Shown one piece after another: positions 570 through 42,575 of a DNA stretch of 64,000 nt. The notes beneath the pieces were generated by a model that was not told where the DNA came from, did not search any database, and worked only from the letters and a program-made list of their open reading frames with translations. Where the stretch lies: assembly GCA_016927685.1 (NCBI GenBank), contig JAFGMD010000021.1, forward strand, positions 21,913 through 85,912. The letters run 5' to 3'. This DNA comes from Candidatus Falkowbacteria bacterium (GTDB lineage Bacteria > Patescibacteriota > Patescibacteriia > CAIXNZ01). The translations under genes and the position numbers were made by a program. Numbering within the stretch: position 1 is the first letter of the stretch; every line of letters begins with the position of its first letter.

Positions 570-1571
570 ATGAACAAATTCTATACTCAATTTAACGATA
601 TCTTAAAAAATCAGCCTGCTTATAGAGTAAAACAGATTAAGCAGGCGATTTTTGTTGAACTCATTGATAATTGGGATAAAGCCATGACTTTACCTAAAGA
701 CCTTAGAATAGAATTGGCAAAAAAATTACCCCTGGAAATTAAGGCGCAAATTTTTGAATCAAAAGATGAGGATGCTGCCAAGGCTTTAATAACCTTAAGC
801 GATGGCCTAAAAGTTGAAACAGTGTTGATGAAACATAATCGCCGAAATACTGTTTGCGTTTCTTCGCAAGTCGGTTGTCCTTTGGGGTGTAAATTTTGCG
901 CCACAGGCGCCATGGGGTTTAAAAGAAATTTGGAAACTTGGGAAATAGTCAGCCAGGTTTTATTTTTTGCCAGAATTTTAAAAGCCCAAGGTGATAGGGT
1001 AGACAATATCGTTTTTATGGGCATGGGTGAGCCATTTTTAAATTATGATAATGTCATGGAGGCGATTAGAATTATTAATGATCCTCATGGCCTGTCCATT
1101 GGCATTCGTCATTTTTCCATTTCTACAATTGGTATAATCGAAGGTATTGAAAAGTTTGCTGATGAGAAAATGCAGGTTAATTTGGCCATTTCTTTACATG
1201 CGCCAGATGACAGGACTAGGATTGGCATAATTCCTTGCGGTAAAAAGTATACTATTCATAAAATTTTAGAAGCAGTTGATAATTATATTGCCAAAACTAA
1301 TCGTAAGGTAATGTTTGAATATTTGCTCATAAAAGATGTGAATGATTCAGATGAATTTGCTTTAAAATTAGCCAAATTAATGAAAAAACCACTTTATTTT
1401 GTGAACTTAATAACGTATAATAAAACTGGGGCCTATCAGCCACCCTCCACTGATAAGATAAAGCATTTTAAAGATATTTTAGAGAAAAACAGGGTATTTA
1501 CCACCTTAAGATACCGCTTTGGTGCTGATATTGAAGCCGCTTGTGGGCAATTAGCAGCTAAGAACAAATAA
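570..1571 (+). CDS. rlmN: 23S rRNA (adenine2503-C2)-methyltransferase, radical SAM (RlmN)
   Basis: Radical SAM CxxxCxxC motif (CPLGCKFCATG), a conserved RlmN N-terminus (YRVKQIKQAIF), and the C-terminal Cys (EAACGQ). Confidence 0.9.
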   Translation: MNKFYTQFNDILKNQPAYRVKQIKQAIFVELIDNWDKAMTLPKDLRIELAKKLPLEIKAQIFESKDEDAAKALITLSDGLKVETVLMKHNRRNTVCVSSQVGCPLGCKFCATGAMGFKRNLETWEIVSQVLFFARILKAQGDRVDNIVFMGMGEPFLNYDNVMEAIRIINDPHGLSIGIRHFSISTIGIIEGIEKFADEKMQVNLAISLHAPDDRTRIGIIPCGKKYTIHKILEAVDNYIAKTNRKVMFEYLLIKDVNDSDEFALKLAKLMKKPLYFVNLITYNKTGAYQPPSTDKIKHFKDILEKNRVFTTLRYRFGADIEAACGQLAAKNK

Positions 1572-1573
1572 AA

Positions 1574-2038
1574 ATGAAGTTAAATTACATCACAATTCCG
1601 ATAATTACTATTGCCGTTTCAGTATTAGGTAGTTTTTTAACTAGCGCTGGTATGGATTGGTATAAAACTTTAAAATTGCCATCTATAGCGCCTGGCGGAA
1701 ATATAATTGGCAGTGTTTGGACAGTTATTTTTATACTTTCAACTATTTCAGCATTGATTGTTTGGAATAACATTCCTAAAACAAATTTATTCTGGTGGAT
1801 TATTGGATTATTTATAGCAAATGCGATTTTGAATGTGCTATGGAGCTTTATTTTCTTTTATTCTCAAAGCATTGGACCCTCAATTATTGAAATGATAATT
1901 TTAGAACTTACAGTTTTGTGTCTATGCATTTTAATTTGGCCATTTTCCAAGATCGCTTCAATTTTACTTTGGCCATACGCGGCTTGGGTTATTTTTGCTA
2001 CATATCTGGCCTATAATATTTGGATTTTAAATAAATAG
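1574..2038 (+). CDS. tspO: TspO/MBR family tryptophan-rich sensory protein
   Basis: About 154 aa with 5 TM helices, W-rich motifs (DWYKTLKLPSIAPGG, WPYAAWVIFATYLAYNIW) typical of TspO. Confidence 0.7.
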   Translation: MKLNYITIPIITIAVSVLGSFLTSAGMDWYKTLKLPSIAPGGNIIGSVWTVIFILSTISALIVWNNIPKTNLFWWIIGLFIANAILNVLWSFIFFYSQSIGPSIIEMIILELTVLCLCILIWPFSKIASILLWPYAAWVIFATYLAYNIWILNK

Positions 2039-2076
2039 GTCTTTTGACCTAATATCTAATAATTAACGTTAAAAAC

Positions 2077-2283
2077 ATGAGAAGATTAAATGTCATGGAT
2101 TTAATTGCTTTTATTCTAGTGATCGTTGGCGCACTTAACTGGGGCTTGGTTGGTATATTCAACCTTAACCTTGTTACTGCAATTTTAGGCTCAATCCCTG
2201 TTTTAGTAACAATTGTTTATGTTTTAGTCGGATTGGCAGGCGTTTATTGCATTTATTTGCTTTTAAACGTTGGCAAAAAATAA
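2077..2283 (+). CDS. DUF378 family small membrane protein
   Basis: 68 aa with two TM helices. The LIAFILVIVGALNWGLVGIFNLNLV motif matches the DUF378 consensus (GxLNWGLVG). Confidence 0.6.
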   Translation: MRRLNVMDLIAFILVIVGALNWGLVGIFNLNLVTAILGSIPVLVTIVYVLVGLAGVYCIYLLLNVGKK

Positions 2284-2363
2284 GAATTTTTCAAAAACCC
2301 TCTTGCTTTTTGGCCAGAGGGTTTTGAATTGAATTAATGTTTGAATTATGGTAAATTAGGCAT

Positions 2364-4166
2364 ATGCTAAATTCACAAATTGAAGAAATAAAATCAAAAA
2401 TTGATATTGTTGATTTGATCTCCGAATACACTGCTTTAAAGCCAGCTGGAACTAATTGGAAAGCGCGCTGTCCGTTTCATAATGAAAGAACACCGTCTTT
2501 TATGGTTTCGCGAGATAAGCAAATTTGGCACTGTTTTGGTTGTGGCGAAGGCGGAGATATTTTTGAATTTGTGCAAAAAATAGAGGGTATGGAATTTTCT
2601 GAGGCTTTAAGGCATTTAGCCGAGAAGGCCGGAGTAAAATTAAAGAAAGTTGACCCTGCCATTGTTTCGCAAAAAACTAAATTATTAGATATTCTTAAAG
2701 TAGCCGCTGAATTTTTTCATTTGTCTTTATTAAAAACCCAAGAAGGCAAAATTGGTCGTGATTATATTGAAAAACGAAATTTATCTCAAAAAACAGTTTC
2801 TGATTTTAAAATTGGTTATGCGCCTGATTCTTGGGACAAGCTTTTAAATTTTTTAATTAAAAAGGGTTTTAAGCAAAACGAAATTTTACTTTCTGGCATG
2901 GTTATAAAGAACGAAAAGGGGCAATGTTATGACCGTTTTAGGTTAAGATTAATGTTTCCGATTTTTGATCAGCATGGTGCTGTTGTTGGTTTTACCGGCA
3001 GAATTTTAAATGAAGAAAAGCAGGATCAAGGCGGTAAATATGTAAATACGCCGCAAACAACGATATATAACAAGAGTTTGGTAATTTATGGTTTAGATAA
3101 AGCAAAAAATGAAATAAAGAAAAAAGATTTGGCAGTTATTGTTGAAGGCAATATGGATGTAGTCGCCTCTCATCAAGCTGGCATAACTAATGTAGTGGCT
3201 TCATCTGGGACTGCTTTAACGCAAGAACAACTTAAATTGTTAAAGCGCTATACAAATAATATTGCCTTATCATTTGATGCTGATTTGGCTGGTCAAGCTG
3301 CTGCAGAAAGAGGAATTGATGCAGCGTTGGCTTTGGGATTTAATATTAAAATTATTCAGTTACCTAAAGAAATAAATGGCAAATCCATAAAAGACCCCGA
3401 TGATTGCATAAAACAAGGTCAGGAATTTTGGCAAAAAGCCATAGATTCAGCAATTTCTATTATGGATTTTTATTTTGATAAAGTTTTTTTAAAATATAAC
3501 AAGGATAATCCAGAACAACGCAAGGAAATAGCCAATAAACTCTTTAAGCAAATAGCTAAATTGCCGGATTTAGTGGAGCGGGATTTTTATCTGACAAAAT
3601 TAGCTCAAAAACTGGATGTTCCTGAGAATATTTTAAGAGAGGCCTTTCATCCTTTTAATGACTCAAAGCAAAAAAATACTAATGAAGAAACTCTCTTTAA
3701 TAAAAAGAAAATTGATAGAGAAATAATGTTGGCGAGGCAATTAGTAGCCATAATTTTAAAATATCCCCAAAACCTTGATTATGTAATTAGTCATTTGGAG
3801 GTAGAAACATTGCCCGATTCGCAATTACAGCAAATTTACAGGGAAATTATTTTATATTATAATGATAAGAAGGAGTTTGATTATTCTCAATTTGAAAAAA
3901 TATTATCAGACAAGACCAAAGAATTACTCAACCCAACTTCTACCTTGTTGCTATTAGCTGATAAGGATTTTTTTGATTTTACAGATGATCAAATAGAAAG
4001 AGAATTAATTAATATTGTTTCGGCTTTAAAAAAAGATTATATTAATAAAAAATTAAAACAGGTGCAAATGCTGATTGCTCAGGCGGAAAAACAAAAGAAT
4101 AAACAGCAAATCGAAGAACTGGCCAAGGAATTTTCAATCTTAACTTCAAAATTAAACAACTTATAA
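2364..4166 (+). CDS. dnaG: DNA primase DnaG
   Basis: CHC2 zinc finger ([34 protein letters not shown]) and a TOPRIM region ([16 protein letters not shown]); the length is typical of DnaG. Confidence 0.9.
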
Positions 4167-6021: not shown

Positions 6022-6038
6022 TTCCGGGGTAGCGCAGT
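6022..6038 (+). repeat. 17-nt direct repeat copying the 5' end of tRNA-Asn (pseudo-tRNA fragment)
   Basis: ttccggggtagcgcagt at 6022-6038 is identical to 6344-6360, the 5' acceptor/D-arm of the tRNA. It is followed by two small hairpins (ccgccAGAggcgg, cagccTTCGgctg) and a ttaagggc motif that recurs after the tRNA at about 6461. Confidence 0.6.
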
Positions 6039-6092
6039 TTCCGCCAGAGGCGGATCAGCCTTCGGCTGAGGCTGTCTTAAGGGCTTAAAATT

Positions 6093-6338
6093 ATGTATTA
6101 TGTTTACGTATTAAAAAGCTTAAAGAATGGCAAAAGATATGTTGGCTTTACCAGTAAACAATTGAATGCTAGATTTAAGGAACACAATGCTGGTTCTAAT
6201 AAATGGACACGAGAAAATAGACCTTTTATAAATATATATTCAGAAGAATATAAAACAAAAACCGAAGCAATGAAACGCGAAAAATTTCTAAAATCTGGGC
6301 AAGGAAGAAAAATTTTAGATAGTATTATCGATAAGTAA
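6093..6338 (+). CDS. GIY-YIG nuclease family protein (small URI-domain, COG2827-like)
   Basis: 81 aa; YYVYVL...GKRYVGFT...RFKEHN...REKFLK matches the GIY-YIG core (GIY, YIG, Arg, Glu). It lies between the tRNA 5' repeat copies. Confidence 0.8.
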   Translation: MYYVYVLKSLKNGKRYVGFTSKQLNARFKEHNAGSNKWTRENRPFINIYSEEYKTKTEAMKREKFLKSGQGRKILDSIIDK

Positions 6339-6344
6339 TAATTT

Positions 6345-6419
6345 TCCGGGGTAGCGCAGTGGTAGCGCAGTTGGCTGTTAACCAATTGGTCGTGGGTTCG
6401 AATCCCACCCCCGGAGCCA
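6345..6419 (+). tRNA. tRNA-Asn (anticodon GTT)
   Basis: Manual fold: acceptor TCCGGGG/CCCCGGA, D-arm GCGC-AGTGGTA-GCGC, anticodon stem GTTGG/CCAAT with loop CTGTTAA (GTT), T-arm GTGGG-TTCGAAT-CCCAC, discriminator G and an encoded CCA. Confidence 0.85.
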
Positions 6420-8006
6420 TTCTGCACGAACAGAGGCGAGAGCCTCTGTTTTTGCTTTGTTTAAGGGCAGTATCTTTGGTTCTAACCTTAGATATTCTTT
6501 TTCTAAGACTGAATAACTATTTTTTATTGGGAGAAACCAATTATTGGCGGAAATAGTGAGTTTCCCGTCTTTCATCAAAAAGTTCGAGCCTAAAGCCATT
6601 ACAATGCTTTTCTTGGCTTGTAAATCTCCCAATAAGAAGTTTTTGTAAGCATAAGTAGCAAAGTTAAAGGTATTTTCAGTCAATTCTAACCAACGCTCTG
6701 CTCTGGCTTCGGTCTCCCGTAATTTTTCTTTTAGCTGAATTATTTTTGATTGGAGTAAATTTTTTTCTTTGGTAAAAGCTTCATCATCAATCAGCTCCCT
6801 ATATCGCATTTTGGTAAGCTCATCAATTTCTTTTTGGGTTTTTAGCAAATCAATGCTTAAGCTTTCGTGAATTTTACTTCGGTCTTCAATTTCCTTATCA
6901 TTTGACTGATTTAATACTCCCAAAGCCCAATCTCTAAAATCTGGTAAAATTGTAATGCTTTTTAGTTCATCCAAGATTTGATTTTCTAATTCTTCCTCTC
7001 TGATAACTTTTTTTTGGGAGCAATTTACTCTTATTGTTTTTCTGGTGCAATGGTAGTAAGTATATTTTTTAATCACCCCCGTGCTTTTAATAAACTTCTT
7101 TTTAATTTCAGCCGTATAAAGACAACCGCATTCAGCACATCTGATAAGTCCAGTAAAAGCGAATTTATATTTTTGCGGTCTTGGCTTGCCCTTTTTGCCA
7201 AGTAAAATCTGCACTCGGTCAAATTCTTCCAATGTAATAATTGGTTTGTGATTGCCCTGATATTGTTTGCCAGCCCAATCAATAATGCCAGCATAGAAAA
7301 TATTGTTAAAAATTCTGTATATCCCGCTTTTAGATAATTTGTTATCGCCAATCCTTTTATATTTTTTAGTTCTAAAGCCCCATTCATTATTAGCTAATTC
7401 AAGAATTTTAGGCGGTGTATAATTGCCAGTCAGCATTAAATCCCACATTTTCCTAACCAAGTTAAAACGCTCTGGGTCTTCAGCGATTGTTTTATTTTCT
7501 TTATCGTTGACATAGCCAAGGGGAGCTAAATTGGGCAACCAGCCTTTTTCTAATTTACTTTCCAAACCTCTTTTAGTATTTTTCTTTAAATCAAGGATGT
7601 ATTGATTGGCAACGCCAGTTTCAACACTAAAAAGCAGAACATTGTCATCTGGGAGATATTGCCTATCTATTGTTTGAATTGATTTAAGCGTCCCTTGCTG
7701 TAAAAGCCAGCCTAATTTACCGCTATCAATCGGATTTCTTGAAAGGCGGTTTATTTGCCAGCATAAAATCCCATCTGCTTCGCCTTGCTCTATTTTTTGT
7801 ATCATTTCATCAAATAGGGGTCTGTTATAGGGTTTCTTGGCAGATTTGGCTTCAGTATAAATCTTTTTAATGCTTAAATTCGTTTCTTGAGCTAATTTTT
7901 TTAAGCGGTTGATTTGGTCATCAATTGACTGGACTTGGCGGTCTTCACTTTCAGATGATTTTCTGGCGTAGAGAAAATATTTGATTTTTGATTTATTTTC
8001 GGTCAT
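6378..8006 (-). CDS. large serine recombinase (phage-integrase type; resolvase catalytic domain + recombinase domain + zinc ribbon + coiled coil)
   Basis: N-terminal resolvase motif (YARKSSESEDRQVQSIDDQ with catalytic Ser, WQINRLSRN), a Cys cluster (CAECGCLY...YYHC) and a C-terminal coiled coil. The last 14 codons (WLRGWDSNPRPIG) are the reverse-strand reading of the tRNA T-arm and acceptor; the stop codon falls in the anticodon loop. Confidence 0.85.
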   Translation of the reverse strand: MTENKSKIKYFLYARKSSESEDRQVQSIDDQINRLKKLAQETNLSIKKIYTEAKSAKKPYNRPLFDEMIQKIEQGEADGILCWQINRLSRNPIDSGKLGWLLQQGTLKSIQTIDRQYLPDDNVLLFSVETGVANQYILDLKKNTKRGLESKLEKGWLPNLAPLGYVNDKENKTIAEDPERFNLVRKMWDLMLTGNYTPPKILELANNEWGFRTKKYKRIGDNKLSKSGIYRIFNNIFYAGIIDWAGKQYQGNHKPIITLEEFDRVQILLGKKGKPRPQKYKFAFTGLIRCAECGCLYTAEIKKKFIKSTGVIKKYTYYHCTRKTIRVNCSQKKVIREEELENQILDELKSITILPDFRDWALGVLNQSNDKEIEDRSKIHESLSIDLLKTQKEIDELTKMRYRELIDDEAFTKEKNLLQSKIIQLKEKLRETEARAERWLELTENTFNFATYAYKNFLLGDLQAKKSIVMALGSNFLMKDGKLTISANNWFLPIKNSYSVLEKEYLRLEPKILPLNKAKTEALASVRAEWLRGWDSNPRPIG

Positions 8007-8032
8007 ATAATTATAATTTAATAATTAAAATG

Positions 8033-8150
8033 GACGGTTCTGGTTAACCCAACACACTTGCCCGAAGGTAGTTTTGTCGGCAGAACCGCCCATTAAAAGC
8101 GACAAAAAATAATAAATCCTTCGAACATAGATTGTGTGTGGGTTAACACT
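8033..8150. promoter_or_regulatory. nested imperfect inverted repeats immediately upstream of the recombinase start (candidate att-like or operator site)
   Basis: gttaacccaacacac (8044-8058) pairs with gtgtgtgggttaac (8136-8149). gacggttctg (8033-8042) pairs with cagaaccgcc (8081-8090). cccgaagg pairs with ccttcgaa. Confidence 0.45.
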
Positions 8151-8194
8151 TGTATTATAGCCTATTTTAAAGATTAAGTAAAATTAAATTTCAT

Positions 8195-9094
8195 CTAATT
8201 TATTTTCTCTTTTATCACTTCGCTTGCCTTGGGATAACTTGCATACATTTTATCATTTTCTTCCTTGCCATAAGTCATTGCTATAAGTTGCTTTACTCTT
8301 ATTTTAAACATTGCTTTTTGTTCTTCAGTTATTTCATTATTTGTCTGGTTAGACTGATTAAAATTATTTTGTTGAGAAACTAGAAATTTATTATTATCAA
8401 GCATTGCTGGCAAAAAACCAAATCTAACTAACAACTTATCAAGTTCATTTAAATGATTAGACAGTTTAGCAAGGGATATTTGTAAAAATTCATAACTTAA
8501 AACTAATGACTTGCTGGGCATTAAATCGCCTGCATTGGCTTTTTTAATTTTCTTTTTTAAATTGCCGATACCTTCTTCCATTGATAAAACAATACTTTCT
8601 GATTTTTGATATAATTTCACCCTTGCCGAAAAAATATCAAAATCTTTTAATACTCTGCCTATTTTAACTTCATCTCTTAGTCGCAATGCTATACCTTGAA
8701 CTTCAAGTTCTTGATTTTCCTTGCTCAACTTCTTTTTAAAATCATTTATACTAACAACGCTTGGTATAAGTTCTTTGGGTATATCTGGAAATTCTCTAAG
8801 CATATCTTCTAAAAAAAATGGGGCTGGAACGCTTAAGGTTATCAATGCTTTTATGGCAAACTCACGAAAACCTTTTTTGGTATTCATCAAATATCCAAGC
8901 TTCCCGCCATACTTTTTATACTTTATAGCAGTTTGAATATATTCTTTACCGACTGTATGTTTCTTTGGTTTAACATTAACTTGCTTATTCTCTTGCGGAT
9001 TTTTCTCTATTTGTAATTTTAATTTTGCCATAGTTGCTTTTTTTAGGTATTTTCTCTTTATTTCTCTATAATAAAGAAAGTTAATTATTATCAC
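8195..9094 (-). CDS. hypothetical protein (element cargo)
   Basis: 299-aa ORF; the likely true start is the internal MAKLKLQ. No recognised domain. Confidence 0.4.
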   Translation of the reverse strand: MIIINFLYYREIKRKYLKKATMAKLKLQIEKNPQENKQVNVKPKKHTVGKEYIQTAIKYKKYGGKLGYLMNTKKGFREFAIKALITLSVPAPFFLEDMLREFPDIPKELIPSVVSINDFKKKLSKENQELEVQGIALRLRDEVKIGRVLKDFDIFSARVKLYQKSESIVLSMEEGIGNLKKKIKKANAGDLMPSKSLVLSYEFLQISLAKLSNHLNELDKLLVRFGFLPAMLDNNKFLVSQQNNFNQSNQTNNEITEEQKAMFKIRVKQLIAMTYGKEENDKMYASYPKASEVIKEKIN

Positions 9095-9156
9095 TAAAGA
9101 AGTAATATATTAAGTATCAACACATTATAGGAATAGACTTTAAAGTTCTTTTATTT

Positions 9157-9174
9157 TGCTATATAGTATTATAA
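9157..9174. promoter_or_regulatory. perfect 18-bp palindrome in the promoter region of the 8195..9094 gene (candidate operator)
   Basis: atagtattataatactat reads identically on both strands. It sits in the AT-rich intergenic region upstream of a minus-strand gene. Confidence 0.3.
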
Positions 9175-9209
9175 TACTATTACTTTAGAATTCTATATCC
9201 ATTGCTAAA

Positions 9210-9527
9210 CTAATCCCTTTCGTTTATTGATTGGCTTATCAGATATTCAGTATGTTCAGTATTAAATTTTTCTAAAACTAACTTGCAAAATGAATTCCAC
9301 AGCTCCTTATCATCAGTCCAAAATATCTTTATCCATTTACCGCCCCCAGAACGATTAGCGGGCGGATATGCTACAAAGGGTTCTTTATTTTCAAATATTG
9401 ATTTTCTAATAGTGAAACCTCTGATTTCAAACTGCCCAATTATTAAAATCATTGTAGCTGGCATTTCTGGATTGTCAGTAAATTTGAATTTGAATTTTAA
9501 AGCATTTAAATCTATAGTCATAGTCAT
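9210..9527 (-). CDS. SpoVG-like protein
   Basis: 105 aa. The pattern ...IIGQFEIRGFTIRKS...EPFVAYPPANRSGGGKWIKIFWTDDKELWNSFCKLVLEKF resembles the SpoVG core (hDIRVIdg..GLFVAMPSrR...g.frDIahPI...R..I...VL). Confidence 0.4.
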   Translation of the reverse strand: MTMTIDLNALKFKFKFTDNPEMPATMILIIGQFEIRGFTIRKSIFENKEPFVAYPPANRSGGGKWIKIFWTDDKELWNSFCKLVLEKFNTEHTEYLISQSINERD

Positions 9528-9572
9528 TTATGTTAATAGCTTAAATAAATCGCTGTAATCGCCAATTTGCCC

Positions 9573-9800
9573 CTAATTTGGGCGGTCTTCAGAGGTGTTA
9601 GCAAAAAGCTCAAGATGTTTTAATATGCCCCTTTTATCGCTTTGGGAGTAATCGTCTTTAACTACCAGTCGATTAAACCAATGGCTGATTGTCTTTTTAG
9701 TAAAACCTCGACCCTTTATTGCCATCGCAAAGCAAAGATAAGAGCTGTAATAGGAATTTCTATTTTGGATTTTGGTAAATCTCCGTGCTAAAGATTTCAT
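9573..9800 (-). CDS. hypothetical small basic protein
   Basis: 75-aa ORF in the co-directional block. No domain recognised. Confidence 0.3.
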   Translation of the reverse strand: MKSLARRFTKIQNRNSYYSSYLCFAMAIKGRGFTKKTISHWFNRLVVKDDYSQSDKRGILKHLELFANTSEDRPN

Positions 9801-9834
9801 AATTTTAATGTTAATTATAATTATTTAAGGATTT

Positions 9835-10017
9835 TTAATTTTGTTTCATCTTCTCCCAAACTTCTTTAAATTCTGTTTCGGTCATCGGCTTGTAAATCAA
9901 TTTAAATAACTCAACGAGCTTTGCTCCCATATCATAGGCAACTTCACGGCTTATTTCCTTGCCGAAGTTTTTTTTATAGATATTCTGAAATTTTATTATT
10001 TGCTCATCGCTTAGCAT
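9835..10017 (-). CDS. hypothetical small protein
   Basis: 60-aa ORF, co-directional and tightly spaced. Confidence 0.3.
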   Translation of the reverse strand: MLSDEQIIKFQNIYKKNFGKEISREVAYDMGAKLVELFKLIYKPMTETEFKEVWEKMKQN

Positions 10018-10032
10018 AAGTAAGCATTTTAT

Positions 10033-10293
10033 TTATTCGCTATAAATCCTGTTTTTAAGCATTTTGATATTATCAAAAAGTGTGCGGGCATTAACTTTTA
10101 GGTTGTCTTGCCAGTAATTGTTTATGGCAAGGTCAATGCTTTCAGCACGCTTAAAAATAAACTGCACTTTTTTAGAATTGGTCTTGTCTAAACCAACCAA
10201 TTCATAATCAAGGGATACTAAGACAGAAGCCAATCCTAAATCAAAGGTTAAAAAAATTTCTGACGGCTGTAATTGGGAGCAATTTTTTGTCAT
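10033..10293 (-). CDS. DUF5659-like small protein (phage/plasmid-associated)
   Basis: 86 aa. The pattern FLTFDLGLASVLVSLDYELVGLD...KVQFIF...SIDLAINNYW...LKVNARTLFDNIKMLKNRIY matches my recollection of DUF5659. Confidence 0.35.
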   Translation of the reverse strand: MTKNCSQLQPSEIFLTFDLGLASVLVSLDYELVGLDKTNSKKVQFIFKRAESIDLAINNYWQDNLKVNARTLFDNIKMLKNRIYSE

Positions 10294-10303
10294 ATAATTT
10301 AAT

Positions 10304-10338
10304 GAATAATAAAAAAAGTAAGCTTAATGTTAGCTTAC
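10304..10338 (-). terminator. intrinsic terminator of the 10404..11114 gene
   Basis: Hairpin gtaagctTAATGTTagcttac; the plus-strand A-run before it gives a T-run after it on the minus strand. Confidence 0.45.
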
Positions 10339-10403
10339 TTAATTGTGTGTATTTTTGAGTAGTGGTTATTTGGGGTCTGTTTGGGGTTTATCTGGAGGCT
10401 GTT

Positions 10404-11114
10404 TTAAATATTTAATATAATATTTCCGCTATTATTTACAAATTCTTTTTGATTTAAGCCAGTCTTTAACCTAATATCTTTTACGACTTCATTTATTTTA
10501 TTGGTTATGGTTATTTCTCGTATTGATTTTTTTCTTATTGTTTCATCTCCCAAAGCTGATAATATTTTTCGAGGGTCAACGCCATTATCAACGCCATTAA
10601 GATTTAATACTTTAATAACATCTTCTCTTAAAATCTTCCTCCCCCTATTTTCAAAAGCCAAATCAAAAAGTTTTTTATATTTACCGCTATCTTTAAGCCG
10701 TTTAAATTTTTCGCCCCTCAATTCACCGTCTCCAGTTTCAGGATTATATTTAAAAATTCCATCTTGTCTTATATCTATTTTCTGAAATATAATTTGATAT
10801 TGTTTATAAACCTCATCAAATTTTGGCTGTAAAATATCTACTAAAACCGAAATAGATGTGGGCACTATCCCTAACCAATCCCATTCATACTCATTTAAAG
10901 GTGAAGGTAAATATTTTTCCTTGATTATATTTATAGCACTTTCATTATTTAATAATATCAGGGCTTTTTTCTGTTCTATTTTCGTTGGTATTGTTTTGGT
11001 AGGATTTTGAAATCTAAAATTAAGATACTCATCTTTAGGCGTGGTTAAAAATTCAGCCTTCAATTCTTGTAAAGTCCACCATACAGCTTTATTAAGTTTT
11101 TCTTCTGTTGTCAT
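10404..11114 (-). CDS. hypothetical protein (element cargo)
   Basis: 236-aa ORF. No domain recognised. Confidence 0.4.
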   Translation of the reverse strand: MTTEEKLNKAVWWTLQELKAEFLTTPKDEYLNFRFQNPTKTIPTKIEQKKALILLNNESAINIIKEKYLPSPLNEYEWDWLGIVPTSISVLVDILQPKFDEVYKQYQIIFQKIDIRQDGIFKYNPETGDGELRGEKFKRLKDSGKYKKLFDLAFENRGRKILREDVIKVLNLNGVDNGVDPRKILSALGDETIRKKSIREITITNKINEVVKDIRLKTGLNQKEFVNNSGNIILNI

Positions 11115-11227
11115 AGTAATTTAGGCTAATTTTCATAGTAATATATCTATATTTTAGCTTATTTTGATTACTTTTTCAAGATTTCAAAAGCCCTTTTAAA
11201 ATTTATCGTGTTTTGATACAATATAAG

Positions 11228-11350
11228 TGTTCACCCATAACGAAATAACCTAAAGGGAAGCTGTCCATTCATTAGCCAATTATGGCTGGAAATGGGCAGT
11301 CGAGTTCCATAATTGGCTCTCCCTTTGGGTGAACCGTTATGGGTGAACAG
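11228..11350. repeat. about 122-bp imperfect palindrome with an iteron-like GTTCACCC/ATAACG motif, followed by a small intrinsic terminator (11351-11373)
   Basis: The left arm (tgttcacccataacg ... aaaggga ... agccaattatgg) is mirrored by the right arm (ccataattggct ... tcccttt ... cgttatgggtgaac). gggtgaac occurs twice on the right. Then acagcTCGgctgt + ccttttttatt. Confidence 0.5.
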
Positions 11351-11411
11351 CTCGGCTGTCCTTTTTTATTTAACTTAAATATAAAATTAAATCTTAATCT
11401 TAATCATTTTT

Positions 11412-11999
11412 ATGGAAAACGAATTAAAAAACAACTCAAAAAGTAAAAAACCGATTTATAAAAAATGGTGGTTCTGGGTGATTATTTTCTTTTTTGTAAT
11501 GGGCATAAAGGGATTTATCGGAAATTCCATCATAACTACAGATAATACAAATAATCCCGTTAATGCTCCAAAAGAAATTGAAAATTGGAAATATGGTGAA
11601 AATGTAGATAAAATGACATCTGAAAAAATATATTATGCATACACAACTTCGACTAATCGGATTGACTTTGATTTCCCTTACAATGGTGGCTCAAATTTTC
11701 AACTGCTAGTTAGAAATGGGGGCAAAAAAAATGAGATACTTTTAAGTGTCTCTAAGGGGCAGTTTATGACAAGCATTGGTTATTCTGATGTAAGAGTTAA
11801 ATTTGATGACAATAAACCAATTGTTATAAATTATAGTTCTCCTTCAGATGGAAGTTATGATACTATATTTCTTAAGCAATCAGATACTTTAATATCTGAA
11901 TTAAAAAAGAGTAAGAAGGTCATTGTTGAAGCCGAATTTTTTGATGAAGGCAACCAACTAATAGAATTTAATGTAGAGGGTTTTAAATGGGATAAATAG
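11412..11999 (+). CDS. hypothetical membrane-anchored protein
   Basis: 195 aa with an N-terminal TM helix (WWFWVIIFFFVMGI) followed by a soluble domain. Confidence 0.4.
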   Translation: MENELKNNSKSKKPIYKKWWFWVIIFFFVMGIKGFIGNSIITTDNTNNPVNAPKEIENWKYGENVDKMTSEKIYYAYTTSTNRIDFDFPYNGGSNFQLLVRNGGKKNEILLSVSKGQFMTSIGYSDVRVKFDDNKPIVINYSSPSDGSYDTIFLKQSDTLISELKKSKKVIVEAEFFDEGNQLIEFNVEGFKWDK

Positions 12000-12071
12000 T
12001 TCTTCTTTCTCCCAAGGATAGTGAAATGGTATAAAAAAAGATGTATTTAAGATAATTAAATTAAAAAAATT

Positions 12072-12245
12072 ATGGAAGTCCTTTTTTATTGGTTGATAGT
12101 GTTGGGTATTTATTTTATACCAACCTTTCAAGCAATCAATTCACACAAGAAAAACAAAGGTGCTATTTTCGCTCTCAACTTATTGCTTGGGTGGACTATA
12201 ATTGGGTATATCGTTGCTCTTATTTGGAGTTTAACTAAGGATTAA
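12072..12245 (+). CDS. superinfection immunity protein (Imm_superinfect family)
   Basis: 57-aa ORF below the ORF-track size cutoff. LGIYFIPTFQAINSHKKNKGAIFALNLLLGWTIIGYIVALIWSL matches the family pattern (YFLP..IA..R.H.N..AIF.LNLLLGWT.IGW.VAL.WA). Confidence 0.6.
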   Translation: MEVLFYWLIVLGIYFIPTFQAINSHKKNKGAIFALNLLLGWTIIGYIVALIWSLTKD

Positions 12246-12375
12246 ATTAGGTATATAAATATACTCATTTGACTGCTTAAATATAGTTCTAATGTCATTC
12301 ACGATGTGGAGCAAGTATAATAAAAAGCCCTGCATTTATATCGCAGGGCTTTTAAAATATACAAAAATACGTTTA

Positions 12376-12633
12376 TTACCAGCCATTAGAGCTGGTACGG
12401 GCGCAGTCACTATCAGATTCACATAGATTGGGAATTGCGCATAAAAACTCAGGTAAAAGATATTTTATACGCTCTCCTAAAGTAAATTTACGCAAGTGTT
12501 TTTGTGGTTTATCCACCCATCTTAGCAAGGGCATCCTCGTATACCTGAACCAGATGCCGTCAGCTAATACTAGTGTGCCAATGCTGATAACAATGGTTAA
12601 GATAATTATCCCAGGTAAAAAAGCGTACCACAT
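12376..12633 (-). CDS. hypothetical small membrane protein
   Basis: 85 aa with an N-terminal TM helix. Confidence 0.3.
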   Translation of the reverse strand: MWYAFLPGIIILTIVISIGTLVLADGIWFRYTRMPLLRWVDKPQKHLRKFTLGERIKYLLPEFLCAIPNLCESDSDCARTSSNGW

Positions 12634-12825
12634 CTTTTCCTCCTTTCGCCTGTAAACAAACAGGCATTTTAAGACCTAAATTTTTTATACGAACCTATTT
12701 AAATTTTGCTCCACTTTTTCTTTTTTGTCAATATATTTTTTAAAAAGATTATGACTTGATTTATTTTAAAAATTCTGTTAAGTTTTTCTTATATTTGTTC
12801 TATCAAAATTCAAAGGAGAGAAATA

Positions 12826-42183: not shown

Positions 42184-42575
42184 CGAGGAATCCAAAACAT
42201 CTGATATATGAAACAATATTGCGTTTATATAATGACCAACAAAATCGACTCAGTTGACTATACTGGAATAACAAATGATTTATTTAGAAGAGTCTATGAG
42301 CACAAAACTCATTTTAATGAAAAAAGTTTTACCTCAAAGTATAATATAAATAAATTAGTATATTTTGAAGAATATAATAATCCCAAGCAAGCCATTAACC
42401 GAGAGAAGCAAATCAAGGGCTTGAGTCGGGAAAAGAAATTTAATCTAATTAAAACAATAAATCCTAATTTTAATGACTTAGCAAGGGATTGGTATAAAGA
42501 TAACCAGGCCGAGCATAAGGAACAACCGACTTAACCTAGGTTATAGATTCCACGCTGCGCTCTGAATGACAGTTG
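42163..42575. mobile_element. TIR-bounded element carrying a GIY-YIG nuclease gene (putative autonomous member of the MITE family seen at 44967-45050)
   Basis: The left arm gtcattccgagcgttagcgaggaatcc (42167-42193) and the right arm ggttatagattccacgctgcgctctgaatgacag (42539-42572) are about 80% identical to the two arms of the 84-bp MITE. The GIY-YIG ORF replaces the central loop of the MITE. Confidence 0.55.
42208..42534 (+). CDS. GIY-YIG nuclease family protein (COG2827-like)
   Basis: 108 aa; CVYIMTN...DYTGITNDLFRRVYEHK...FTSKY...LVYFEEY...REKQIKG matches the GIY-YIG core and is paralogous to the 6093..6338 protein. Confidence 0.8.
   Translation: MKQYCVYIMTNKIDSVDYTGITNDLFRRVYEHKTHFNEKSFTSKYNINKLVYFEEYNNPKQAINREKQIKGLSREKKFNLIKTINPNFNDLARDWYKDNQAEHKEQPT

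Follow-up and report, generated by a model that had tools for sequence, protein, structure and literature searches.

The subject of this study is an integrated genetic element in a 64,000-nucleotide stretch of Candidatus Falkowbacteria DNA (contig JAFGMD010000021.1, positions 21,913 to 85,912), which is referred to as the window. The element spans positions 6418-12312 (5,895 bp) in this genome of the candidate phyla radiation (CPR) and encodes a large serine recombinase (LSR) whose open reading frame (ORF) runs antisense into the gene for tRNA-Asn. In all likelihood, it was integrated by recombination of an attP site lying within the last codons of its own LSR gene with an attB site at the end of the tRNA-Asn gene. 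Its domain content and its recombination at a short core identify it as a bona fide large serine integrase element. Related loci and contigs that were compared with the window are labeled L002–L139.

tRNA-Asn(GTT) (6345-6419, plus strand), the only tRNA detected in the window by ARAGORN and Rfam, is converged upon by the LSR gene (6378-8006, minus strand), which encodes 542 aa in the integrated state. The LSR matches the Pfam families Resolvase (8e-19, residues 11-155), Recombinase (PF07508, 9e-8) and Zn_ribbon_recom (PF13408, 7e-12), in agreement with the original prediction of a resolvase domain and a zinc ribbon from the letters alone, and it also matches a PHROG 'integrase' family. The resolvase catalytic motifs YARKSS and RLSR are seen in its translation, and residues about 380-450 have the look of heptad repeats by eye. 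In a PDB search, it aligns to the solved large serine integrases SPbeta SprA/YokA, A118 and TP901-1, with low identity even to the best of them (E about 1e-12). The overlap with the tRNA gene amounts to 42 nt (6378-6419) and arises because attP sits within the LSR reading frame. A Trp codon (TGG) of the LSR is the reverse complement of the tRNA CCA end, and the 12 codons after it, LRGWDSNPRPIG, are antisense to the tRNA 3′ half: the discriminator and acceptor strand account for Leu-Arg-Gly, the T arm for Trp-Asp-Ser-Asn-Pro, and the variable region with the anticodon stem for Arg-Pro-Ile-Gly. The frame closes at TAA, which is complementary to tRNA positions 34-36 (anticodon bases 2-3 and the next base). 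Direct reading of the sequence agrees with the earlier statement that the recombinase ends inside tRNA-Asn with its stop codon in the anticodon loop, and the 14 antisense codons counted at that time are correct when the stop is included, the tRNA-antisense end consisting of 13 sense codons and the stop.

The span of the element is deduced from identical GGAGC blocks at both junctions, 6413-6417 on the left, which holds the crossover dinucleotide, and 12308-12312 on the right (both on the plus strand). A serine-integrase core of 2-12 bp had been named as the alternative to a repeat of the tRNA 3′ half, and this 5-bp repeat is such a core. The attL site (6396-6441, plus strand) consists of a B arm (6396-6417), in which the T-loop GTTCGAA is followed by 11 nt and GAGC, and a P′ arm (6418-6441), CATTCTGCACGAACAGAGGCGAGA, which is kept in ~18 other loci beside six different tRNAs. 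The attL junction reads ...CCCCCGGAGC on the tRNA side and CATTCTGCACGAAC beyond it. The attR site (12286-12335, plus strand) consists of a P arm (12286-12312), in which GTTCTAA is followed by 16 nt and GAGC, and a host B′ arm (12313-12335), AAGTATAATAAAAAGCCCTGCAT. Its junction reads ...CGATGTGGAGC and then AAGTATAAT, with a terminator hairpin following at 12323-12353. A mirrored P′ arm was sought on the far side of the element with no convincing match. The P arm, which differs from P′, was located via the attP pattern of unintegrated copies described below; GTTCNAA-N16-GAGC has one match in the window against 0.06 expected. In the alignment of the window attR with that of L090, similarity starts exactly at the core and is absent on the host side. 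The reconstructed attB junction is CCCACCCCCGGAGCAAGTATAATAAAAAGCCC (...GGTTCGAATCCCACCCCCGGAGCAAGTATAATAAAAAGCCCTGC), and the reconstructed attP junction is CACGATGTGGAGCCATTCTGCACGAAC (...GTTCTAATGTCATTCACGATGTGGAGCCATTCTGCACGAACAGAGG).

The tRNA-Asn gene is host-derived up to C74 (6417), and the element supplies only 'CA' (6418-6419). The original terminator hairpin of tRNA-Asn is displaced to host DNA just beyond attR (12323-12353, plus strand). The unoccupied tRNA-Asn of L010 (...gagC followed by ATAAAT and a hairpin) has no encoded CCA and then a terminator, as at the window attR, and a terminator hairpin is present at the equivalent place in the attR of L136 as well. Directly after the tRNA, a terminator-like hairpin with a T-run (6428-6451, plus strand) lies antisense within the LSR codons KAKTEALASV, and a hairpin follows the tRNA in most other integrated copies, L099 and L100 being exceptions. 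With both junctions mapped, the proposal of an integrated element driven by an LSR at tRNA-Asn is borne out, while its right end has to be moved from 12650 to 12312. One of the two palindromic sites formerly assigned to the element is the displaced terminator at 12323-12353, and the other (~12645-12665) is outside the element, as is an 85-aa ORF at 12376-12633.

The attP site falls within the 3′-terminal part of the LSR ORF. On integration, the conserved native tail of the enzyme, WLHIVNDIRTIF...EYIYIPNL, is therefore replaced by the tRNA-antisense codons, and its remnant (LHIVNDIRTIFKQSNEYIYIPNLILS plus a stop codon) is found detached at the opposite end of the element (12231-12311, minus strand). 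When the two ends are rejoined in silico, the frame is open and yields a 556-aa ORF ending WLHIVNDIRTIFKQSNEYIYIPNLILS with the same tail. Contigs that carry native-tail LSRs (L128-130, L131, L132) have an intact attP, GTTCGTGCAC-NN-TGGCTC-N16-TTNGAAC, a 41-bp imperfect inverted repeat in which TGGCTC is the only tRNA-like sequence. Their tails have the form W-L-x5-F-R-T, where F-R-T is the protein image of TTNGAAC. Conserved native tails are present in these unintegrated copies and at the distal ends of three further integrated elements, which have an attR of the same design: L090 (tRNA-Trp, 7.3 kb, identity block GTGCCATT, tail HRIVNDVRTIFQRNAEFIYI), L136 (tRNA-Asn, 7.9 kb, GGAGC, LRIVDSVRTIIEGQKEYIYIPDL) and L139 (tRNA-Asn, 10.6 kb, GGAGCCA, LRIVNNVRTIIERQTGYIYIPDL). 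The conservation is seen at the protein level (E-Y-I-Y-I-P-D/N-L), which argues that the long form of the LSR is expressed from the free element. The identity blocks of the window, L090, L136 and L139 are 5, 8, 5 and 7 nt long and have a 4-nt overlap in common. On sequence grounds, the four blocks confine the putative crossover to G-N-G-C at tRNA positions about 71-74, the boundary between the mature tRNA and CCA. On L132, 6 kb separate the native-tail LSR from another LSR, 489 aa long (1389-3068 and 8833-10302). Two or three serine recombinase genes are clustered on some contigs (L132, L081, L123-L125), which may represent nested or tandem elements.

Homologs of the LSR are abundant in databases (more than 4,790, the best match being at 73% identity), the top 120 having 67-74% identity, and those that carry organism names are almost all from Patescibacteria. 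When the C-termini of these 120 best homologs are sorted by the residues after the conserved ...TEALASVRxxW, 80 have xDSN-type tails, which are antisense T arms of different tRNAs, and 29 have 3-residue tails, for which the type case L082 is tRNA antisense with an early TAG (W-L-R-D-stop). Tails antisense to tRNA, the mark of the integrated state, amount to 109 of the 120 (91%), native tails to nine, and other tails to two. In the metagenome loci, a convergent tRNA overlaps the LSR end in ~20 of 45, and the tRNAs concerned are those for Gln(TTG/CTG), Trp, Lys, Asn, Ala and Ser. Nearly all of them have an encoded CCA end, and in most the conserved element DNA nnnTGCACGAACAGAGGnnnnnGCCTCTGTTTTTGC comes next. 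The elements of L086 (at tRNA-Gln) and L095 (at tRNA-Asn, by rpoD-dnaG) are 96.8% identical over 6.36 kb, and the identity breaks off within GAGCCA, with which both tRNAs end. Judging from these comparisons, the overlap of the LSR with a tRNA is a family trait rather than an accident, and the tRNA body is host DNA, not element DNA. The window has all four traits of the family, namely the junction of TEALASVRxxW with tRNA antisense, the P′ arm with its hairpin, the pair of DUF5659 and 60-aa genes, and the native tail at the distal P arm. The other boundary of the L086/L095 identity, at ~5267, was considered as a candidate attR and rejected; it has no P-arm motif and is a mosaic breakpoint inside the element.

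In L095 (11597-11910) and L007 (11490-11800), the anticodon loop of the tRNA-Asn beside the LSR is interrupted by a group I intron (Rfam Intron_gpI, with 90 bits for L095), and these genes are therefore missed by ARAGORN. Introns in tRNA-Asn and tRNA-Asp of Patescibacteria have recently been described (PMC13011429), consistent with these two cases. The sequence GGTTCTAACC, which resembles the T-loop GGTTCGAATCC, is found at 6478-6487 of the window within codons for L-R-L-E-P, and is conserved ~56 nt past CCA in most family members; it may reflect the protein sequence alone or serve as an accessory DNA site as well. Many CPR contigs break off at the tRNA/LSR junction or no more than about 250 nt away from it (L002, L003, L009, L085, L091, L099, L100 and L127), and L002 and L003 terminate exactly at ...GGGAGC.

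In the most likely course of events, attB was the 3′ end of the tRNA-Asn gene together with the DNA just downstream. As the junctions show, strand exchange took place within 4-5 bases, GGAGC (tRNA positions about 70-74); the mature tRNA remains host-encoded, C75-A76 and then element sequence being added. After integration, the integrase ORF reads antisense tRNA up to the stop in the anticodon loop, and its native tail codons are left at the opposite end of the element. The embedded hairpin with the T-run, conserved in the family despite its place in coding sequence, would take over termination of the tRNA transcript from the displaced terminator. The distance from GTTCNAA to GAGC is 16 nt in the P arm and 11 nt in the B arm, where the motif is the T-loop, and thus is 5 bp shorter in the latter. 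In attB sites of serine integrases, the distal motif for the zinc ribbon is likewise 5 bp nearer the centre than in attP (PMC3783163). This match suggests that the universal T-loop serves the zinc-ribbon domain of the integrase as the distal motif of attB, which would explain why near-identical elements are found at different tRNAs. Excision would rebuild the 556-aa integrase and would need a directionality factor. A more general proposal is that this integrase clade recognises generic tRNA architecture via one half-site, the T-loop at a fixed distance from the discriminator/C74, and that the exchange of the C-terminal tail is a switch or memory that distinguishes the free from the integrated enzyme. 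We regard this extension as doubtful. Recognition by one half-site would let the same enzyme land at several tRNA species, and a tail swap acting as a switch, if true, would be a new control of directionality or expression.

Several observations weigh against integration of the element in this manner. The 5-bp shift is seen only between the P and B arms. The B′ arms are A/T-rich and have no motif common across elements, and at the canonical distance P′ has no counterpart of the distal motif of P, its GAAC being at a B-like distance. The att site thus has less symmetry than is usual for serine integrases, and the crossover dinucleotide could be at more than one position within the core. Deviation of the element from the backbone, for which a check of k-mers and codon usage had been suggested, is there but modest: the GC content is 31.3% against 34.7%, and the tetranucleotide deviation is exceeded by only one of 59 sliding 5.9-kb windows. 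Neither an empty-site allele nor an excised circle of the window element was retrievable. The only other contig of the source genome (L127, from Logan; SRR13394437) stops ~190 nt before the LSR start codon, the exact thrC protein matched the source genome alone, the exact LSR protein sequence is not on record, and relatives found via rpoD in GTDB are too distant to provide an empty site (rpoD at most 72%, dnaG about 41%). L009 was rejected as an empty site, since the 3′ end of a distant LSR follows its tRNA. Furthermore, no gene for a directionality factor, replication or transfer was found in the window copy by Pfam or PHROG, so that its present-day mobility is conjectural.

Three other explanations have to be weighed with these points. 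In the classical design, used by many tyrosine-integrase elements (PMC5704250), attP of the element carries the tRNA 3′ half, which restores the gene on integration and leaves a displaced direct repeat. The 42-nt overlap of the LSR ORF with the tRNA would fit such a design, and a downstream repeat of the 3′ half was sought on the strength of the original prediction. However, no second copy is present in the window when as many as 3 mismatches are allowed, and on the cargo side of 15 related loci there is no match of 11 nt or longer. In addition, two elements of 97% identity over 6.36 kb sit at two tRNAs with the identity ending within GAGCCA, and the intact attP copies hold TGGCTC as their sole tRNA-like sequence. 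The classical design is contradicted by these results and has virtually no probability. The recombinase might instead be a stationary, domesticated or decaying gene that overlaps the tRNA by accident among small genes of the ancestral chromosome, an idea to which the lack of excision evidence for the window copy and the occurrence of LSRs beside tRNA-Asn downstream of rpoD in distant CPR genomes (L007, L095, L105, L133, L136, L139) lend some support. It is made very improbable by the decoupling of LSR similarity from that of rpoD (70% for rpoD and 25% for the LSR in L007; 56% and 68% in L095), by the intactness of attL, attR and the detached in-frame tail, by the occurrence of the same cargo module beside different tRNAs, and by nine homologs in the attP configuration. 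The findings named beforehand as contrary to an element were an ancestral locus with the same genes and no recombinase, a missing att repeat and a degenerate recombinase. The att repeat is present and the recombinase intact, and in related genomes these cargo genes are not found here without a recombinase.

A temperate phage, possibly defective, with two membrane proteins as prophage superinfection-immunity genes, is suggested by the Imm_superinfect and Sie-like matches of the cargo and by the fact that serine integrases are typical of phages. No family for virion, lysis or packaging functions, including capsid, tail and terminase, was found in the window element by PHROG and Pfam or among the precomputed Pfam matches of its larger relatives, which are 7-11 kb long and have primase and restriction-modification genes, and among 2.9 million viral contigs scanned, a single LSR turned up, a distant one (25%). 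Such an origin is quite improbable. The cargo, to which a phage/plasmid-like character had been ascribed, shows no structural genes of phages. Relaxase and conjugation families were also absent from the Pfam matches of the window element and from the gene tables of the relatives.

The cargo of the element integrated at tRNA-Asn begins upstream of the LSR with a row of genes on the minus strand. An ORF of 278-299 aa (8195-9094) has no Pfam or PHROG match and no tblastn match in related elements; it is followed by ORFs of 105 aa (9210-9527), kept in some related elements, of 75 aa (9573-9800), kept in L089, L092 and L106, and of 60 aa (9835-10017), found in most relatives with enough upstream sequence. 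In relatives, the 60-aa gene usually lies directly downstream of the gene for a DUF5659 protein, the hallmark cargo of the family (10033-10293 in the window, 86 aa, Pfam E 8e-9). The first gene of this long operon (10404-11114, 236 aa) encodes an orphan with only two homologs in databases. On the plus strand, there are genes for a 195-aa membrane-anchored protein (11412-11999; PHROG 1848 at 6e-11 and PHROG 4980 at 9e-6), weakly similar to phage superinfection-exclusion families, and for a 57-aa protein of the Imm_superinfect family (12072-12245; Pfam 7e-16, PHROG 1039). The distal cargo is thus predicted to encode two small membrane proteins of the superinfection-immunity type. Two cargo proteins are identical to the NCBI entries JW977_02755 and JW977_02735, which assigns the window to a Candidatus Falkowbacteria MAG. 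Among the labels given to the cargo earlier, DUF5659 and Imm_superinfect are supported by these matches, and SpoVG-like, which had been applied to 9210-9527, is not: this protein has no Pfam match even at E<=5 and no sequence match in PDB, hhalign against a true SpoVG of a related element gives a probability of 0.7%, and its AlphaFold model (pLDDT 75) has no structural match in PDB at E<=0.001.

Larger relatives (8-11 kb) have genes for restriction-modification enzymes or methylases and for an HTH_17 (MerR/Xis-like) protein on one strand; on the other strand, they encode a large protein, DUF5659, a 60-65-aa protein, a ~740-aa Toprim primase and two proteins of ~180-200 aa, and the LSR abuts the tRNA in a fixed layout. 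The pair of DUF5659 and 60-65-aa genes is found in most relatives, at different tRNAs. The window copy keeps the LSR, DUF5659, the 60-aa gene and two further small conserved genes. It is without the Toprim primase and HTH_17 and is therefore probably reduced, possibly non-autonomous. The window element is probably a reduced member of a plasmid-like family of integrative elements, with its mobility being a prediction.

Between the divergent operons of the element, a nested inverted repeat forms a very stable hairpin of ~130 nt (11228-11365, plus strand; -67.7 kcal/mol, z = -8.3), which is flanked by a promoter-like sequence (11195-11222) and a terminator-like hairpin with a T-run (11347-11365). 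This repeat matches no Rfam family and, among 132 loci, is found only in the source genome. Its possible roles are those of a small regulatory RNA or of an origin-like structure. Its portion at 11228-11349 was considered as an att site and rejected because of the wrong orientation and spacing, its uniqueness to the genome and its RNA-like folding.

On the other side of the junction, an ORF for an 81-aa GIY-YIG protein (6093-6338) ends 6 nt before the intact tRNA-Asn gene, and is preceded by an exact 16-17-nt copy of the tRNA 5′ end (6022-6038) and the hairpins TCCGCCAGAGGCGGA and TCAGCCTTCGGCTGA. The order of a copy of the tRNA 5′ part, GIY-YIG and the full tRNA is found for five of six GIY-YIG genes in the fetched loci (window 6022-6338, L092 9717-10050, L105 991-1290, L096 4809-5010 and L007 11177-11487), the 5′ copy often having an inserted hairpin in its D loop. 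The flanked tRNAs include Trp, Asn, Tyr and Asn. Since some of them have no adjoining LSR, the arrangement seems not to depend on the LSR element. It resembles a homing cassette that would enter tRNA genes and bring along a replacement 5′ segment; no paper on it was found in a literature search. A second GIY-YIG gene of the window (42208-42534) is not beside a tRNA.

Some parts of this design have counterparts in other systems. In archaeal integrases of the SSV1 type, attP lies inside the int gene and integration changes the gene, as in the CPR element. In the SSV case, a tyrosine integrase ends up in two large pieces, whereas the CPR element exchanges only the last 13-40 codons and leaves the catalytic protein whole. 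The Ccr serine recombinases of SCCmec insert at the 3′ end of rlmH/orfX, which stays active. Both these enzymes and the CPR LSR target a conserved housekeeping gene at its very 3′ end, although the target of SCCmec is a protein gene, the recombinases belong to a different clade, and there is no overlap between ORF and att site. The phage integrases A118/LI, phiC31, Bxb1, TP901-1 and SPbeta SprA have the resolvase/recombinase/zinc-ribbon architecture in common with the CPR LSR. Phage large serine integrases also share with it a short identity core, an attP of about 41-50 bp in the form of an imperfect inverted repeat and, as far as its P and B arms are concerned, a distal motif 5 bp nearer the core in the attB-type arm (PMC3783163). 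On the other hand, the target in CPR is the 3′ terminus of a tRNA gene and not a site inside a protein gene, only the tRNA arm of attB is conserved, and attP is inside the integrase frame, where integration alters the C-terminus. Tyrosine-integrase elements (P4-like islands, NBU1 and pSAM2-type) use the tRNA 3′ end without destroying the gene and have the integrase adjoining it, as here (PMC5704250), but their enzyme family and chemistry are different, and they duplicate tens of tRNA bases, whereas the CPR element shares 4-8 and leaves the tRNA all host-encoded.

According to a review, the ends of tRNA genes are used by tyrosine recombinases, whereas site-specific serine recombinases disrupt the genes within which they insert (PMC5704250). 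The CPR LSR family breaks this rule by cutting after the mature tRNA and supplying its own CCA and putative terminator. The word 'tRNA' is absent from the text of a large LSR survey (PMC10083194), and no description of a tRNA-end LSR family of CPR was found in the full-text literature, although one elsewhere is possible. Serine integrases are tools for genome engineering, and one keyed to the universal T-loop is possibly worth testing. LSR elements, through heterogeneity in the population or multi-copy LSR genes, may be a systematic cause of breaks of CPR contigs at tRNA genes. The family is very large, as the number of its homologs indicates. With genes for restriction-modification and superinfection immunity among its cargo, it is probably one of the main carriers of gene flux in CPR bacteria.

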